Notes under the pieces: model-generated
The model's database searches: none
Told to the model about the DNA's origin: nothing
What the model saw: only the letters and a program-made list of their open reading frames with translations
Assembly (NCBI RefSeq): GCF_034113385.1
Contig: NZ_JAXEXL010000014.1
Coordinates: 42,247 to 106,246, forward strand
Reading direction: 5' to 3'
Length of the DNA: 64,000 bases
From: Atopobium sp.
GTDB lineage: Bacteria; Actinomycetota; Coriobacteriia; Coriobacteriales; Atopobiaceae
Shown: positions 57,856-64,000 of the stretch, piece after piece
Numbering within the stretch: the first letter of the stretch is position 1
Layout: every line of letters begins with the position of its first letter
Made by a program: the position numbers and the translations under genes

Positions 57856-58225
57856 ATCAGCACCTCGTATCTACAAAACCGTTAAGGTGTATTTATACTT
57901 TAAGGTCATCTTTGTATAGATACCATACCCAAGTACTTGGATATCAATGCTCAAGCGAAAATCAACTAGCTAAAAATATTTTTTAGCATTGTATCAAGGT
58001 TTATTCAAGCGCTTGTACGAGAAGCTTGGCCAAACTAGTTTGAATACACTTGCCATGTAAGATGTGAGCCCTGTGTCAGGCGCTCTTTTGCTATATTCCT
58101 TTTGCCGCATAAAATTAGCCATTTGTCTTAGTTTATGACGTTGTTTTAAAAAGTTGATTATATAATTGCGCTATAAAGTAAGAAAAGACTTACTTCATGT
58201 AAGTCATAAGGATAGGTGTTTACTT

Positions 58226-58495
58226 ATGAATTCCTCTACTAACAAAGTTGCCACTCTAGCTCTGGATATTCTTTTTGCTGCTTGCATTATTGGATACGCA
58301 GCCTCGGCGTTTTATTTTAACGTCAATGTGCCCATATTCCAAATTTTGGCAGGAACGCTGGCAGTCATTGTTAATGTAGTGCAGTTTAAAAAGGAAAGAA
58401 AAACACTCACAAAAGCCGAAATTATCGCTGAAATTATAGGGATGGTTTTTATTGCCCTCTTCACCTTAGATGGATTGGTACACCTTTTTAGCTAA
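58226..58495 (+). CDS. Small three-TM membrane protein in the AT-rich island
   Basis: 89 aa from the ATG at 58226, after AAGGATAGG. The hairpin GACTTAC TTCAT GTAAGTC lies just upstream. Confidence 0.45.
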   Translation: MNSSTNKVATLALDILFAACIIGYAASAFYFNVNVPIFQILAGTLAVIVNVVQFKKERKTLTKAEIIAEIIGMVFIALFTLDGLVHLFS

Positions 58496-59018
58496 CAGGT
58501 GGTACGTTTGGCAATGTATATTGAGCTGGGAGTGTCTTTTAGACAAGAGGTGCGAGGGCAATACAGTCGCTATGCCCAATCCCGGGAACTTATGTCTCTG
58601 ACATACAACATCTGATTTTGTGTTATATTGCTCTTACAGAGAGCTGCCTTTTATCACAGTATTGGGATTAGAGCCGGCTCTCTTTTCTTAGCTAAGAAGC
58701 GTGGAGAGTAATACATTTTAGTTATCAAATGCTTTTGACATATGATTAATGTAACGTTATAAAGGATTTTAAACAGACGAGCCTATAATCCAACTATTGG
58801 AACTGGGGTTTGTTTGTTTTTGATTTGCACATAGTTAATAACTTCTTTATAACCAGTGAAATTCGTGCACTATTCATCAAGATAAGACATGCAGTCATGC
58901 AACTACAGTACTGAATCCACAGTTACATTAAGCTCGTATACTGGCTAATTAACACGTCACTATGACCGTGATACTTACAAAAGAGTTATGTAATAAGACG
59001 GTTTCAGGAGATGCAACA

Positions 59019-59174
59019 ATGTCGACTTTGCTTATACTGCTTTGCATAACTATTTACCTTTTTTGGCCGTTAATCCTTCTAACTATTTTAGCTCTGATTA
59101 TTCATCATTTTATTGCTAAACATGAAGAGAAGAAGCTGCAAAAGCAACTAGAAGAATTAGCAAAATTACAATAG
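59019..59174 (+). CDS. 51-aa single-TM peptide with a charged coiled C-terminus
   Basis: The AGGAG RBS lies 8 nt before the ATG at 59019. The sequence is MSTLLILLCITIYLFWPLILLTILALIIHHFIAKHEEKKLQKQLEELAKLQ. Confidence 0.45.
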   Translation: MSTLLILLCITIYLFWPLILLTILALIIHHFIAKHEEKKLQKQLEELAKLQ

Positions 59175-59700
59175 AGCTTCTAATTATAGCTACGCCAAAT
59201 TGACAGTCTATTTATAAGACAGCAGTATATAAATGGCTTACAAAGTAGAAGTGATAACGTAACATCAATTAATATAAGAGTTAATGAGACAACAAAAAGA
59301 AGTTGCTTGAAATTATTGAGAATTTCAGGTTTGACCTTTCGTCAGTAACGAGAACTTTTTATCGCCAAATTGTCCAAGAAAACCGTTACCGCTCCATCTC
59401 TTCTATGGTAATCCCAATGAGGAAAGCTTACAAAGCATCCGGAATGTTGTGTCTACATTGGCAAACAGTAACATGAACTTTAAGAAAGCTTAGGCACAGA
59501 CATACCATGCATACCCTTAAGGGTAACTAGCCTGGTAGTTGTGAGTGTCATATTGTCAATATTGAGGACTGGCTGTTAGCATAACGTTCAAATAAAGCCA
59601 GTATCGTCTTTCAGCGTACTGAATCACGTGATGAGCTATTCCGATAATTTCTTATAATTATACCTACCTAAACGGCTGTCATGTGAGCATTGATTTTATT

Positions 59701-59781
59701 TTGTCTCCCATTTTTGTCCCACAATAAAATTTGTGAGACAAAAATTGTAATTGTGTCCCACAATATACTTTGTAGGACACA
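59701..59781. repeat. Cluster of direct and inverted TGTC(C/T)C(A)CA-type motifs immediately 3' of fic
   Basis: TGTCCCACAATA occurs at 59715-59726 and 59754-59765. Related copies are TTGTCTCCCA at 59701-59710, and the inverted TGTGAGACA at 59732-59740 and TGTAGGACACA at 59771-59781. Confidence 0.6.
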
Positions 59782-59787
59782 AATGGA

Positions 59788-60897
59788 CTACAAAGTATAT
59801 TGCCCTTCGGTAATCTCAAAAAGCTTCGGAAAATAGTAGATGGCAGCCCGTCTTCCACTTGGCCGCTTAATCTCAATGATATATCCAAGACCTTTAAGCA
59901 CGTCAAGGAGCCTACGAGCTGTTTTGGGGTTAATACCCTCTGTATGGGTAATATCAGATGAAGAAAAAATTGGTTTTTCAAATAAAGCATTTACAACAAC
60001 GCTAACGTTTGCAGATTTTGTTTTATTAAACAAATCGCTTATTACTTGTTCCCGTAATTGAAATATTTGGTTAGCTTTGCGTGTATTCTTCCTTGCCTGA
60101 GTTTCAATTGCACTTAAAAAGAAATTACACCAACCAGTCCAATCATTATCTCTAGAAACAGCCAGAAGCCTGTCTTGATATTCTTCATCCCTATGTTCAA
60201 AGAATTCGCTTAGATAGAAGCTCGGATACGTAAGGATTCCATTCGAACAAAGCATTAGCGGAATAATCATACGACCAATACGACCATTTCCATCTAAGAA
60301 TGGATGAATGGATTCAAATTCAGCATGGGCAATTGAAATTTTTAAAAGTGGATGAATTGTACTCTCATTAACGAATTCTTCCCAAGTCGCCATTGCGTCT
60401 TCTAATTTATCAGGATGAATTGGTACAAAACGCGCATTTTCAATCTTACTTTCCCTTGTACCAATCCAATTTGGTTCTTTACGATACATCCCAGGAGATT
60501 TAAAACGTACTCTTACATTTTTTAAGAGTAAACTATGAGCAAATTTAATAACGCGACCACTTAATGGAATTTCATCCATTAATTTTTTTGCAGCGTTTAC
60601 GGCAATGCGATAATTAACCACCTCGCGGATATCATCATGCATAGCAGGATTAAAATTTTCGTCTCCAGCTTCATACATCAATACATCGTTTGCGGTAGCT
60701 CTAGTTCCTTCAATTTTTGATGAGGAAACAGCTTCTTGAACCATAAGAGGAGAAACAAGCACCTCGGAGTTGGGAATAATGCTTAGAAAGCTGTCATATC
60801 GGGCAAGGGCATCTGATGCGCATGCTAATGGTGTTGTTAGTACTTCCCAATCCAAATTACGAGGCGGGAATTCACCATAATGGTAATGGACGCTCAT
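59788..60897 (-). CDS. fic: Fic/Fido-domain protein (probable AMPylase) with an N-terminal inhibitory-helix motif and a C-terminal winged helix
   Basis: The active-site loop is HPFLDGNGRIGR (HxFx[D/E]GNGRxxR). The N-terminal SSKIEG fits [ST]xxxE[GN]. A sampled line gives about 32% G+C. Confidence 0.9.
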   Translation of the reverse strand: MSVHYHYGEFPPRNLDWEVLTTPLACASDALARYDSFLSIIPNSEVLVSPLMVQEAVSSSKIEGTRATANDVLMYEAGDENFNPAMHDDIREVVNYRIAVNAAKKLMDEIPLSGRVIKFAHSLLLKNVRVRFKSPGMYRKEPNWIGTRESKIENARFVPIHPDKLEDAMATWEEFVNESTIHPLLKISIAHAEFESIHPFLDGNGRIGRMIIPLMLCSNGILTYPSFYLSEFFEHRDEEYQDRLLAVSRDNDWTGWCNFFLSAIETQARKNTRKANQIFQLREQVISDLFNKTKSANVSVVVNALFEKPIFSSSDITHTEGINPKTARRLLDVLKGLGYIIEIKRPSGRRAAIYYFPKLFEITEGQYTL

Positions 60898-61091
60898 TTT
60901 TGTTATTCTTCCTGCTGGATATTCATATACAATTTTTCTTCATTTTACAGTAGTTACAGTTCTGTAAGACATGGTCAGCTGTTTTTATCTTACAAAATTT
61001 ACGAGATTCTTCCCTTTATAAAAATACTCGGTGTAAGTTTAGGGTTATAGGACAAAATTGCATAAAAATCCCCGCGTGTGCGGGGAACATC

Positions 61092-61781
61092 GGCTTTTGC
61101 TTCATGCTATCAACTAGTGGATTTGTCTACCATACCAAAAAATCTGCTGGCGGTGATGGACATAAGTTTCATATCGGGTGTGATTGCATTATCGTTTCAG
61201 GGACTGAAAAAACCGTTATCGAAGGCTACGATCCTGATGCGATGTATAAGCGCTGGTGTATGTGCACAGAGACTTTAGGGTTGCAGTCAACACATGAGAA
61301 TCTCAACAAGATTATTACAGAGGTTGAAACAAGAGATTTTCGCTGGCTTAACAGTGGTAGAGTGCCAGAAGCGACCTACGCAAGTGAGAGCATTAAACAT
61401 TCGGTAACGGTAAACAATCCATGGGAGGGTAGGACTGCGCATAGGCTAGCTAAAGTTGGTATCAAACCAGATTTTCAAGTTGACTACAAGACGGTTAAAA
61501 CGGATGGAGTTGCGCGCAGGGTTGGTCTGCCCGATTTTAGCAATGGAATTGAAATTAAAACACCCAGAGACTCCAATAACGCATACGGAGCAGTAAAAAA
61601 TTACGTAGGGAAAACGAATGAAAGAAAAATAGAGGTTAAAAGAATGATAATAGACAACACAGAATCTAACTTTTCAGATGATGACCTTATTAAGGCAATA
61701 AGGAGTGTATCAGAAGAGCTGGGAGTAAATTACAAAATTGCGTGTCTTACCAAGACGGGTAAGTTGCTAAATATTACATAA
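61092..61781 (+). pseudogene. 3' fragment of a phage-like gene: possible MuF-type C-terminal region plus a PD-(D/E)xK nuclease-like (toxin-like) domain, truncated at a CRISPR repeat
   Basis: The frame is open back through the repeat and there is no RBS before the first ATG at 61104. GDGHKFHIGCDCIIV is an HxxCxC element. GLPDFSNGIEIKTP matches PD..(E)xK. Confidence 0.55.
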
Positions 61782-61862
61782 ATAAAGAGCGGGTGCAATG
61801 TGCGCAGTTGTACGCCGGCTTCCCACTCTTTAATGACAGTATACCACATATGTTGTTGATTT

Positions 61863-61886
61863 AAGCCGCATGCCTGCGGCTTTTTT
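61863..61886 (+). terminator. Intrinsic terminator inside CRISPR insert A
   Basis: AAGCCGCA TGCC TGCGGCTT is followed by TTTT. Confidence 0.7.
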
Positions 61887-61988
61887 CATGTACGCAAGCC
61901 ACAGCGGAAATGTGGCACACACCTCGTGGCAAGGGCAATGCCACTCGTTAACGCCCGAGCGGGCGGAAATCTACCGAAAGGAATAGTT

Positions 61989-62080
61989 ATGGATCTGAAG
62001 GAACCAATCACGACCCAAGAGCGCCTTGATGAGATTTTGAAAGAGCGACTAGAGCGAGCAAAAGAGCAAGTGCGCAGCGA
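61989..62080 (+). pseudogene. 5' fragment (30 codons) of a gene cut by the CRISPR repeat at 62081
   Basis: The AAAGGA RBS precedes the ATG at 61989. The sequence MDLKEPITTQERLDEILKERLERAKEQVRSE then runs directly into the repeat. Confidence 0.45.
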
Positions 62081-62178
62081 GGAATCATCCCCGCGTGTGC
62101 GGGGAACATTAGTAAATGATAGCTCATGATAGTAAATGATAGGAATCATCCCCACGTGTGCGGGGAACATTTCATAGG

Positions 62179-62394
62179 CTAATCATAGAAAACATCAGGA
62201 GGATAATCGGGAAATGATTCGCTGAGATAGTCATGTCCAGCTACTATGCTCTTTTTCATTAGCTCAATAGCTTCTTTCGGTGTAATCCCGCAACCTTCTG
62301 TCCCCCAGTCACAATCAGGGAACATTTCCCAAAATTTACTGCTCACCTCTGCATTCTCACCACGCGAAAGACCCCTCCAATCTATGCACTCCAT
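62179..62394 (-). CDS. Complete 71-aa Trp/Cys/acidic hypothetical protein inside CRISPR insert B
   Basis: A strong AAGGAGGTG RBS lies 5 nt before the ATG at 62394. The sequence is MECIDWRGLSRGENAEVSSKFWEMFPDCDWGTEGCGITPKEAIELMKK... The stop lies 9 nt from the repeat at 62170. Confidence 0.6.
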   Translation of the reverse strand: MECIDWRGLSRGENAEVSSKFWEMFPDCDWGTEGCGITPKEAIELMKKSIVAGHDYLSESFPDYPPDVFYD

Positions 62395-62396
62395 GA

Positions 62397-62679
62397 TTAC
62401 ACCTCCTTTAAGATTTCCTTAAACACATCATACGATTTAGGTAGATACCTTTTCAAGGTCTCTAGTACTTCGGGATTGCTCATTGTTGTTTCATAGAAGT
62501 GTGCAAATGTTTCTGTTGAAAGTTTAGCTTCACCAGAACGTTTCCAGTAGCTCTTTCTATGAACAGGAAAACCGTACTTATCTTCACAGCAAGTCCCATT
62601 TGTTGCACCATTGATAATGTCTGATATGCCGCCCATAGCAGTGGGGCTGTCAGTCCATATTACTGAAACATCGTAAGTC
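62397..62679 (-). pseudogene. 3' fragment (about 94 codons) of a gene whose 5' end is replaced by the CRISPR repeat at 62680
   Basis: The frame is open from the repeat edge. It reads ...LTYDVSVIWTDSPTAMGGISDIINGATNGTCCEDKYGFPVHRKSYWKRSGEAKL...KEILKEV and is translationally coupled to the 71-aa ORF. Confidence 0.5.
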
Positions 62680-62708
62680 AGGATTATCCCCGCGTGTGCG
62701 GGGAACAT

Positions 62709-62831
62709 TACTTTAGCGATAGACTCTGCTGCCTGCTTTAGCTCGAGCAGATTAAGCCCCTTAGTTTGTGCAGCATCGAGCATTGCAGTAATGCCTACCT
62801 CGACGCGCTTCTCATTATAAATATCGTCCAT
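62709..62831 (-). pseudogene. 5' fragment (41 codons) of a gene cut by the CRISPR repeat at 62708
   Basis: The ATG at 62831 overlaps the hicB-like stop (TAGCATG). MDDIYNEKRVEVGITAMLDAAQTKGLNLLELKQAAESIAKV then runs into the repeat. Confidence 0.5.
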
Positions 62832-62832
62832 G

Positions 62833-63273
62833 CTATGCCTTTCGTGGTCTATGAGCTGCAGGGGGGTTCTTCTTACGCTCATTTACGCTTGCAATGGTAA
62901 TCATGCGCTTACCACCAACAATAGTGCCATCAAGTGCGCCGCTGTCGATAAGCTGGCTAATACGTCCTCGTGATACGCCCAACTCTTCTGCTGCTTGTGT
63001 AACAGTTAGGCACTTGGTGCTCTCAACGAATAAGTTATCAACTTCAACACACAGCACTACCTGAGGAGGATTACTAAACACTGCTCGCGGTAACTTCTTG
63101 CCTTGCTCTATATAATCTGCAATAACAAACCGCAGCGCAGCCGCAATATTCTCAACAGCTTCCTTGATATTGTCTCCGCCGCTAGATACACCACAATTAG
63201 ACGGAAATACAGGCACGCAGCCAACCCAGCTACCATCTACACGCTCAAGAATAGCCTCATAAACATATGTCAT
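62833..63273 (-). CDS. hicB: HicB-like antitoxin domain fused to a C-terminal HTH (excisionase/MerR-like) domain, complete, inside CRISPR insert C
   Basis: The HicB/UPF0150-like pattern is MTYVYEAILERVDGSWVGCVPVFPSNCGVSSGGDNIKEAVENIAAALRFVIADYIEQGKKLP. The HTH is LTVTQAAEELGVSRGRISQLIDSGAL. A GGAGAG RBS precedes the ATG at 63273. Confidence 0.7.
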   Translation of the reverse strand: MTYVYEAILERVDGSWVGCVPVFPSNCGVSSGGDNIKEAVENIAAALRFVIADYIEQGKKLPRAVFSNPPQVVLCVEVDNLFVESTKCLTVTQAAEELGVSRGRISQLIDSGALDGTIVGGKRMITIASVNERKKNPPAAHRPRKA

Positions 63274-63613
63274 ACGCTCTCCAATCCACATAGAGGTGGC
63301 GGGGGCTTATCCCCCGCCTTGCCTACCAACCAACTGATTTACATATACTTGCATATGTCCCTCGGGCTAAATGCTTCCCGAGACTGCCGGGGACTGTAAC
63401 AGGGATCATCCCCGCGTGTGCGGGGAACATGGAGTATTATGCGTAAGGAATGGCAGCTGACTGGGATCATCCCCGCGTGTGCGGGGAACATAAACTAAAA
63501 AGCTGGAGCGTACTACAGATGCCGGGATCATCCCCGCGTGGGCGGGGAACCTGGTCCATTCTGGGCGATGTTTTTAGCCTGGTTGGGATCATCCCCGCGT
63601 GTGCGGGGAACAT

Positions 63614-63959
63614 TGAGCCAGCGAGATTGCTGCCAGCCCCGAACAGGCCAAGTTTTTTCAAGAGCATACATTACATCTTTTACTATGTTTGGATAAGTTA
63701 GCTGAGGAGGTAAACTCACTGTGCATGTTGCTGCAAGCCTAGCGACTTCATCATCAGGAATCTCTTCTCCATCTCCGAGTGACTGAGATTCCCTATCTGA
63801 ATAGACTGTACTATCAATCCAAGGTAGCACATAATACTTACCTTTTTGCTCCTGCACCATAATGACTTCCATTGATTCTTGTGAATCACGTACTGTTGCG
63901 CGGCCAACTGCTTCATCAGTGATGGACAGCGATTCATTGAGCCACCCTATGAGGTTCAT
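63614..63959 (-). pseudogene. 5' fragment (about 115 codons) of a gene cut by the CRISPR repeat at 63613
   Basis: MNLIGWLNESLSITDEAVGRATVRDSQESMEVIMVQEQKGKYYVLPWIDSTVYSDRES...TWPVRGWQQSRWLN continues only as repeat-encoded residues. No clear RBS is visible. Confidence 0.4.
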
Positions 63960-64000
63960 TGGTCGTTTTATTTTTGGATTGTCAATAAGCCACGTATGAG

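Follow-up and report, generated by a model that had tools for sequence, protein, structure and literature searches.

The window, that is, the whole stretch of 64,000 nt of DNA that was analysed, ends in a CRISPR array of eight repeats (R1-R8). Read from R1, the intervals between the repeats are 990, 32, 509, 693, 32, 32 and 32 nt, and R8 is followed by at least 387 nt up to the window edge. The host is a gut or oral Atopobium-like bacterium. The features are as follows.

61062..61090, minus strand: R1, terminal repeat at the trailer end, with a degenerate 3′ end (…GGGGATTTTTAT)
61091..62080, plus strand: insert 1, 990 bp, the oldest unit, with genes antiparallel to the array
61092-61781, plus strand: VG15/MuF-like minor capsid gene, C-terminal 229 codons (Pfam VG15, PHROG head proteins)
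61863-61887: terminator in insert 1
61989-62080, plus strand: scaffold gene, first 30 codons (PHROG head proteins)
62081..62109, minus strand: R2, a variant ending …GATGATTC and then C; this final C is shared with the insert 1 donor, where it is preceded by AA
62110..62141, minus strand: canonical 32-nt spacer containing a 13-nt direct repeat
62142..62170, minus strand: R3, with the T27 variant shared with R2 and one private change
62171..62679, minus strand: insert 2, 509 bp, flanked by R3 and R4
62179-62394, minus strand: complete gene of 71 aa, with 8 nt of insert 2 beyond it
62397-62679, minus strand: MuF/SPP1-gp7-like head morphogenesis gene, C-terminal 93 codons (PHROG 4728, tblastn)
62680..62708, minus strand: R4, a variant ending …GATAATCC and then T; the odd final T is the base found at that position in L070, a relative of insert 2
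62709..63401, minus strand: insert 3, 693 bp, with 110 nt of upstream DNA, the HicB-like gene and a 5′ fragment
62709-62831, minus strand: next gene within insert 3, first 41 codons
62833-63291 (or 63273 from the second ATG), minus strand: complete HicB-like/HTH_17 gene (Pfam, PHROG)
63402..63430, minus strand: R5, consensus
63431..63462, minus strand: canonical spacer, also present in the sister array L063
63463..63491, minus strand: R6, consensus
63492..63523, minus strand: canonical spacer particular to the window lineage
63524..63552, minus strand: R7, with two private changes
63553..63584, minus strand: canonical spacer particular to the window lineage
63585..63613, minus strand: R8, consensus, directly adjoined by truncated cas3
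63614..64000, minus strand: 3′ part of cas3, C-terminal domain (Pfam Cas3_C, E = 6e-15), frame open to the window edge

The eight repeats lie where the initial annotation had placed them. Seven are within two mismatches of the 29-mer, for which shuffled sequence gives an expectation of zero, and the degenerate R1 retains the core stem-loop. The hairpin of R1 together with its T-run resembles an intrinsic terminator. On the minus (functional) strand the repeat reads ATGTTCCCCGCACACGCGGGGATGATCCC, and its stem CCCCGC/GCGGGG with a loop of 4 nt is like that of the E. coli I-E repeat. The repeat length of about 28-29 nt, the GTTCCCCGC-N4-GCGGGGA stem-loop and the 61-nt period given by 32-nt spacers agree with the earlier assignment to subtype I-E. 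A scan of GTDB representatives revealed the same repeat in long, regular arrays of genomes from Collinsella and Atopobiaceae, and Rfam had no match for it. The array is a genuine type I-E array transcribed from the minus strand, with its trailer on the side of the Fic gene and its leader side beyond base 64000.

The repeat length of 29 nt had to be revised, although the coordinates stand. Within arrays the 29th base is sporadically C, T or G, a variation not shared by positions 27-28; since the 29th base behaves as a PAM-derived base on the spacer side, the true repeat is 28 nt long. The 161-aa ORF at 62397-62882 was rejected as artificial, because it reads through R4.

Phage content and inheritance of the long inserts

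The long inserts have the geometry of spacers, as had been proposed: each sits between two complete repeats, and neither a repeat nor a spacer is split. Their description as truncated coding DNA was also correct, and Pfam, PHROG, tblastn and donor contigs now identify this DNA as phage-derived. The content consists of sub-genic pieces of phage head modules and of HicB-like gene DNA, with four of the six ends cut within genes. These "macro-spacers" are random sub-genic pieces of 509-990 bp from at least two different phages. With the whole region as query, blastn gave no match in 50,697 phage genomes.

For insert 1, two phage contigs (L060 and L061) show 98% identity to 61091-62081, and the homology ends at the repeat edges. 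Their gene order is a partial ORF, a 497-aa ORF, VG15, a 153-aa ORF and the major capsid gene; here the unnamed flanking ORFs occupy the expected places of large terminase, portal and scaffold. Both boundaries of insert 1 fall inside head genes of the donor, and in the L060/L061 alignments the repeat is present at neither of them. Insert 2 has relatives (L065-L068 and L070) at 83-87% identity. Homology to L065-L068 stops exactly at 62171, while the BLAST alignment with L070 stops at 62178. In a protein-pattern scan of IMG/VR, the insert 2 fragment matched only a relative at 65% amino-acid identity, and nothing was found for the proteins of inserts 1 and 3.

Insert 3 is also present in a sister array, L063 (SPAdes contig, ERZ9450621), which contains R4, insert 3 with one SNP in 693 nt, and the flanking repeat. 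The suggestion that inserts occupy spacer positions is thus borne out in a sister strain, where insert 3 lies in the same slot. Leader-ward of insert 3, L063 has 16 canonical 32-nt spacers, one of which is common to the window, and beyond it the two arrays diverge. Long units make up three of the four oldest units of the array; there are none among at least 16 later units in L063. A metagenome scan with the neighbouring Fic protein detected no sister strains (best match at 71% identity, without an array).

Could the long intervals be false joins through repeats, or ordinary IS or MITE insertions? The window is part of a metagenome-assembled genome ("Atopobium sp."), and R5, R6 and R8 are identical, so that the order of units between them rests on a single assembly; both points speak for an assembly or binning artefact. 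However, positions 57913-63428 recur at 99.9% identity or more in the Logan assemblies SRR21357637, SRR27108428 and DRR848639, and the region recurs at 100% in two contigs (L062 and L064, from DRR848639 and SRR21357644). The same junctions therefore come from independent assemblies, made by different assemblers in different studies, and a join through a repeat would still require a real insert-repeat junction in the reads. R1-R4 are each a unique variant, so assembly at k=31 crosses them unambiguously. Terminal inverted repeats (TIRs), target-site duplications (TSDs) and transposase are all absent, which counts against IS or MITE insertion and agrees with the initial annotation. The array structure is not an assembly artefact, and this whole class of explanations is scarcely credible.

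Junctions, PAM and origin of the inserts

All seven junctions lie at repeat edges, with microhomology of 0-2 nt. Read in the orientation of the array, the insert 1 donor gives CCTTAAAC directly followed by TCGCTG, i.e., AAC precedes the insert at its leader-side end, and the C of this AAC is at the same time the final base of R2. In the donor, only 1.7% of positions have AAC. The one canonical protospacer identified for the repeat family, obtained with 55 Collinsella spacers, is likewise preceded by AAC; a protospacer search with 19 local and 72 Atopobiaceae spacers gave no matches. An actinobacterial I-E system with a repeat that likewise ends in CCC has AAC as its validated PAM (PMC13572051), and in Bifidobacterium the I-E PAM is listed as AAC, with the last repeat base derived from the PAM (PMC8482600). 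The I-E PAM sought at a donor boundary is therefore present at the leader-side end of insert 1, as AAC rather than AAG; it is of the AAN type, with its last base carried into the array. This argument rests on a single junction, that of the only insert with a close donor, at p of about 0.02. In the nearest relative of insert 2 (85% identity, first 38 nt poorly conserved) the head triplet is TCT and not AAY, while the T at -1 matches. For insert 3 the searches yielded no donor.

The initial annotation had weighed ruler-independent acquisition against recombination with a repeat borne by a mobile element. A donor without repeats at the boundaries, boundaries inside essential head genes and AAC at the leader-side end together favour the former. 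The best explanation, in our opinion about evenly balanced between right and wrong, is that Cas1-Cas2 integrated the inserts from an end anchored at the PAM, without measuring their length. The integrase would be the normal Cas1-Cas2 of adaptation, which in relatives has a DnaQ exonuclease fused to Cas2. The PAM-proximal 3′ end would be captured and trimmed at AAC as usual, leaving C as the last "repeat" base, and the PAM-distal end would be an arbitrary free DNA end instead of one measured at 33 bp. Both 3′-OH ends would then attack the two edges of the leader-proximal repeat, and gap repair would duplicate it. Acquisition of ordinary 32-nt spacers would have continued afterwards. If so, the inserts suggest that a spacer-inserting enzyme is occasionally able to insert DNA about 30 times too long.

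Several points count against integration by Cas1-Cas2, beginning with the single junction behind the PAM argument and the TCT head of the insert 2 relative. Those I-E Cas1-Cas2 complexes that have been characterised measure about 33 bp, and the inserts, at 990, 509 and 693 nt, do not follow this ruler of 32-33 nt. On established structural knowledge, a single complex cannot hold both ends of a 1-kb duplex. The long units are also concentrated at the old end of the array. Finally, T27 is present in R2 and R3 and absent from R4 and later repeats, a pattern that simple leader-ward copying of the repeat does not predict.

This T27 pattern hints at recombination within the array and so gives some weight to another kind of repair at the repeat edges, namely capture by end-joining or template switching at breaks in the hairpin repeat or at nicks made by Cas1, without complete Cas1-Cas2 integration. 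The microhomology of the junctions and an ATGTT match offset by one base at the tail of insert 1 point the same way. Yet the offset microhomology was not used at the junction, and such repair leaves unexplained why each junction coincides exactly with the edge of a repeat and full repeats lie on either side; AAC and the carry-over of one base at the heads are likewise unaccounted for. We consider this origin unlikely.

Homologous recombination guided by spacers would give repeat-exact boundaries and a leader-side PAM automatically. Here, two phage spacers from the same strand would have recombined with their protospacers, and the intervening phage DNA would have replaced the repeat between them. 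Two spacers from one phage strand are what primed adaptation produces. Recombination between spacer and protospacer was reportedly described in staphylococci by Varble et al. in 2019. Such exchange between phages and CRISPR loci could bring phage DNA into an array and let spacers set its boundaries. A self-targeting cas3 spacer that recombined in this way with cas3, with loss of the cas operon, would account simply for the fusion of cas3 with R8. This scheme predicts AAC at positions -35 to -33 from the trailer-side ends. The triplets found there are CAA (insert 1), TAT (insert 2), AGC (insert 3) and GCC (cas3); C or T stands at -33 in three of these four tails, but none of the four has the predicted PAM 33 nt from the end. 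In the donor, no PAM accompanies the last 33 nt of insert 1; the head of this insert fits, and its -1 base is A, which is seen about once in some 180 repeats of the family. Three independent double events on homologies of 32 bp would also be needed in one short array. Taken together, these points make an origin by spacer-guided recombination quite improbable.

The cas3 fragment beside R8

The fourth long interval had been described as a captured 5′ gene fragment. It is in fact the 3′ part of the host cas3, cut about 47 codons before its natural end, exactly at R8. Between it and R8 there is neither a leader nor any of cse1-cas2, and this C-terminal domain is the only trace of I-E cas genes in the window. 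The closest homologues of the fragment sit in complete I-E operons, and in the protein collection searched it had no match above 52% identity.

The fusion of cas3 with R8 is probably the result of a deletion of the cas operon. In a later event in the window lineage, cas3, now about 47 codons short, would have been joined to the 5′ edge of R8, and this probably removed cse1-cas2, the leader and any newer spacers and left an orphan array. For the array as a whole, the structure, the phage origin and exact boundaries of the inserts, AAC at one boundary, age and inheritance are established, and the enzyme, the succession of steps and this deletion are inferred. With the host cas3 shortened and joined to R8, the inserts may no longer be processed by Cas6e in this strain.

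Returning to Cas1-Cas2 integration, a broader form of it holds that the natural I-E complex integrates kilobase "macro-spacers", with one end chosen by the PAM and the other unmeasured, including gene capture of a casposase-like kind and perhaps the joining of cas3 to R8. We put this forward tentatively and think it somewhat easier to doubt than to accept. If true, Cas1-Cas2 keeps a casposase-like capacity to capture whole genes with their promoters, e.g., the intact HicB-like gene, and the same chemistry may attach the end of a broken chromosome to the edge of a repeat, as at cas3-R8, and so delete the cas operon.

Comparison with known systems

In canonical I-E acquisition (E. coli and the actinobacterial systems with AAC as PAM) the insert likewise comes to lie between two complete repeats, and insert 1 is similar in its leader-side AAC and in the last PAM base serving as the 29th "repeat" base. 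The Atopobium array also holds normal 32-nt spacers. In contrast to canonical spacers of 32-33 bp, its inserts are 509-990 bp long, carry whole and partial genes and show no sign of measurement at the PAM-distal end. The proposed origin also resembles that of casposons, in which a casposase, a homologue of Cas1, inserts DNA of kilobase scale and duplicates the target. A casposon, however, is a defined element, whereas the cargo here consists of random phage fragments and the target is a CRISPR repeat; casposase, family-B polymerase and terminal inverted repeats are all lacking in the inserts.

IS elements in CRISPR arrays produce long inter-repeat intervals as well, but truncated phage genes make up the intervals in Atopobium. 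Phage DNA flanked by repeats is also known from the II-A array of S. pyogenes, where an integrase placed the whole prophage PhiAP1.1 at a core of 8 bp within the repeat (bioRxiv 10.1101/2020.10.09.333658). The inserts could similarly be the decayed remains of temperate phages whose site-specific integration targeted CRISPR repeats, an event documented by the same work, and solitary or short copies of the repeat core do occur in some viral contigs. Unlike PhiAP1.1, the inserts are internal head-module fragments of sub-genic size, without an integrase or att core, and the repeats beside them are intact and not interrupted. For insert 1, whose donor has no repeat-like site at its boundaries, this origin is largely refuted, and for the inserts in general we hold it to be very improbable.

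A full-text literature search, limited in extent, found no report of spacers that are of kilobase scale or bear genes. Cas1-Cas2 is taken to fix spacer length strictly, and this assumption underlies models of adaptation, array-finding software and DNA-recording tools. The software discards long intervals, and annotation pipelines may thus hide similar cases. Inherited fragments of 0.5-1 kb in spacer positions, with the PAM at the correct end, indicate that the ruler can possibly be bypassed in vivo and that CRISPR arrays may occasionally capture genes. The Atopobium case points to a living link between spacer acquisition and transposition of the casposon type, and a long duplex that terminates at an AAC PAM is a concrete, testable substrate.

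One I-E-like locus (L017), with gaps of about 2 kb between clusters of repeats, was considered as a second example and rejected. A conserved leader is common to three of its four clusters, and the terminal repeat of two clusters is degenerate, so these clusters are separate arrays and represent a different phenomenon.

Repeat array and its long units

The 29-nt repeat of the initial annotation is present in the window in seven copies with at most two mismatches, whereas shuffled sequences are expected to yield none. An eighth copy, at 61062, is degenerate at its 3′ end and retains the core stem-loop, which confirms the eight-copy array described there. On the minus strand the repeat reads ATGTTCCCCGCACACGCGGGGATGATCCC and has the architecture of the E. 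coli I-E system: a CCCCGC/GCGGGG stem closing a 4-nt loop, with a 3′ handle of 8 nt. Since the degenerate copy, R1, is the terminal repeat, the trailer lies at the left and the leader side past 64000.

Units of the array in array orientation (minus strand), with repeat starts in brackets
63614-64000: cas3 fragment, followed by R8 (63585), 32 nt, R7 (63524), 32 nt, R6 (63463), 32 nt and R5 (63402)
62709-63401: insert 3, 693 nt, with a complete HicB-like/HTH_17 gene, 110 nt of upstream DNA and 41 residues of the next gene, followed by R4 (62680)
62171-62679: insert 2, 509 nt, with the C-terminal 93 residues of a MuF/SPP1-gp7-like protein and a complete 71-aa gene, followed by R3 (62142), 32 nt and R2 (62081)
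61091-62080: insert 1, 990 nt, with 229 C-terminal residues of a minor capsid protein (VG15/MuF-like), a terminator and the N-terminal 30 residues of a scaffold protein, followed by R1 (61062) and the trailer

Genes are cut in the middle at four of the six insert ends. Inserts 1-3 contain no transposases, terminal inverted repeats or target duplications, in agreement with the earlier view that they do not look like IS insertions, and no copies of them were found elsewhere in the 64-kb window.

The window comes from an NCBI metagenome-assembled genome. Logan assemblies from three sequencing runs contain its segment 57913-63428 at no less than 99.9% identity, and parts of the window recur at 100% in two more contigs. 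R1-R4 are each unique in sequence, so that k=31 assemblies traverse them unambiguously. In addition, a SPAdes contig from a different study (L063) carries a sister array with R4, insert 3 (one SNP in 693 nt) and the flanking repeat, and leader-ward of these 16 canonical 32-nt spacers, one of which is common to the window; beyond it the arrays diverge. This recurrence rules out assembly error for R1-R5 and shows that the inserts are old, inherited units in spacer slots of an array which continued to acquire normal spacers. That long phage pieces occupy spacer slots is, in our view, highly probable.

Several other traits of the array were observed. The R1 hairpin (61062-61090, minus strand) is followed by TTTTTAT and scores as an intrinsic terminator ending the array transcript. 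The sole short spacer among the old units, 62110-62141, has a 13-nt direct repeat in it, TAGTAAATGATAG occurring twice with starts 20 nt apart, which is odd for a spacer and may reflect an origin in an iteron-like region. On the minus strand, an ORF (62397-62882) runs in frame from insert 3 via R4 into insert 2. It is listed among public gene calls as a 144-aa protein (L001), almost certainly a meaningless chimera. The trailer adjoins a low-GC island (58000-61000, 36-38% vs about 48% elsewhere) with a Fic/DOC-family gene (59788-60897), whose nearest metagenome relatives are just 71% identical and have no adjoining arrays.

Phage donor and proposed mode of acquisition

Two phage contigs, L060 and L061, were found by way of a full-length VG15 protein with 97% identity. 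They carry, in this order, a partial ORF, a 497-aa ORF, VG15, a 153-aa ORF and the major capsid gene; family matches were obtained for the VG15 and capsid genes only, and the unnamed ORFs occupy the expected positions of large terminase, portal and scaffold. Over its first 30 residues the 153-aa ORF shares 93% identity with the scaffold-like fragment of insert 1. At the nucleotide level the contigs are 98% identical to 61091-62081, and homology ends at both repeat edges, beyond which the donor continues as ordinary coding sequence with no repeat. Both recombination with a phage-borne repeat, which had been proposed earlier, and site-specific prophage integration are thereby excluded for insert 1.

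Read in array orientation, the donor sequence is CCTTAAAC|TCGCTG, so that insert 1 begins directly after AAC, a triplet found at 1.7% of donor positions; its C coincides with the last base of R2. Is AAC the PAM? The 29th repeat base behaves as a PAM-derived base: within five arrays of this repeat family it changes sporadically between C, T and G, and bases 27-28 stay fixed. For this family a single canonical protospacer was found, with AAC in the same register. A large survey links the PAM with the final base of the repeat and lists AAC for Bifidobacterium I-E (PMC8482600), and 5′-AAC-3′ was shown experimentally for a Streptomyces I-E system whose repeat likewise ends in CCC (PMC13572051).

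The proposed test of donor boundaries for a PAM gives AAC at the head of insert 1; at the leader-side edge of insert 2 the related contig L070 reads TCT|GACTTA. Its −1 T equals the unusual final T of R4 and is not preceded by AA; the stretch is poorly conserved. Relatives of insert 2 are 83-87% identical and lose homology at, or slightly inside, the trailer-side edge: exactly at 62171 in L065-L068, at 62178 in the BLAST alignment of L070.

All seven visible junctions lie exactly on repeat edges, with microhomology of 0-2 nt, which requires repeat-edge-specific chemistry or homology. The best fit, to which we give an even chance, is that Cas1-Cas2 integrated the inserts, processing the PAM end normally and leaving the far end unmeasured. 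In the closest intact relatives Cas2 is fused to a DnaQ-type exonuclease. The main rival, recombination via two flanking spacers, predicts an AAC at a distance of 33 nt from every trailer-side end; the triplets observed there are CAA, TAT, AGC and GCC. Normal I-E acquisition, casposon integration, PhiAP1.1-type prophage integration into repeats, spacer/protospacer recombination and IS insertion each differ from the inserts in at least one tested defining feature, and a limited full-text literature search returned no description of kilobase-scale spacers.

Four points do not fit the Cas1-Cas2 model cleanly: a single junction carries the PAM argument, the head of insert 2 is equivocal, the long units are grouped at the array's old end, and repeat position 27 is T in R2 and R3 (62081-62170) and the family-consensus C in R4 and all newer repeats (62680-63613). 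Plain copying of the first repeat towards the leader does not predict the last pattern, which hints that the trailer end underwent gene conversion or array recombination.

The cas3 fragment

The interval 63614-64000, earlier counted as a fourth captured insert, proved to match the Cas3 C-terminal domain, in a frame open up to the window edge. The genes cse1-cse2-cas7-cas5-cas6e-cas1-cas2 directly follow its closest homologues. The fragment ends about 47 residues early, exactly at R8, and at the equivalent point the sister strain has further spacers. The simplest reading is a deletion of the remaining cas operon, leader and newer spacers with an endpoint on a repeat edge; alternatively, the fragment may be a self-derived macro-spacer, an overlong unit in a spacer slot. 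The cas3-R8 junction is seen in the window alone, and even a false join via the repeat would presuppose a genuine junction of cas3 with a repeat in the reads. In a related I-E locus (L027, 717-3559), cas3 is called as two overlapping ORFs of 750 aa and 185 aa (C-terminal domain only), either a frameshift or a truly split cas3.

Related proteins and loci

The VG15/MuF-like protein (61092-61781) and its relatives (P0005-P0030) extend about 170 aa C-terminal of the Pfam domain, reminiscent of MuF proteins with fused toxin domains; one relative, P0028, has a second Pfam domain, PF18451. A 437-kb contig (L017, IMG/VR UViG_3300021978_000001), a huge phage or misclassified bacterial contig perhaps, carries four I-E-like mini-arrays with gene-bearing segments of about 2 kb between them and an adjoining cas3 gene. 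Three of the four have a conserved leader, about 130 nt long, in common and are therefore duplicated leader-array modules. Solitary or paired, perfect or near-perfect repeats of the window type also occur outside arrays, one next to a CRISPR array of another type, others in viral contigs (5425-5451 of L020, the Collinsella MAG contig CAUDVX010000012.1; viral contigs L014 and L016); these may be repeat units that occur singly on mobile elements.
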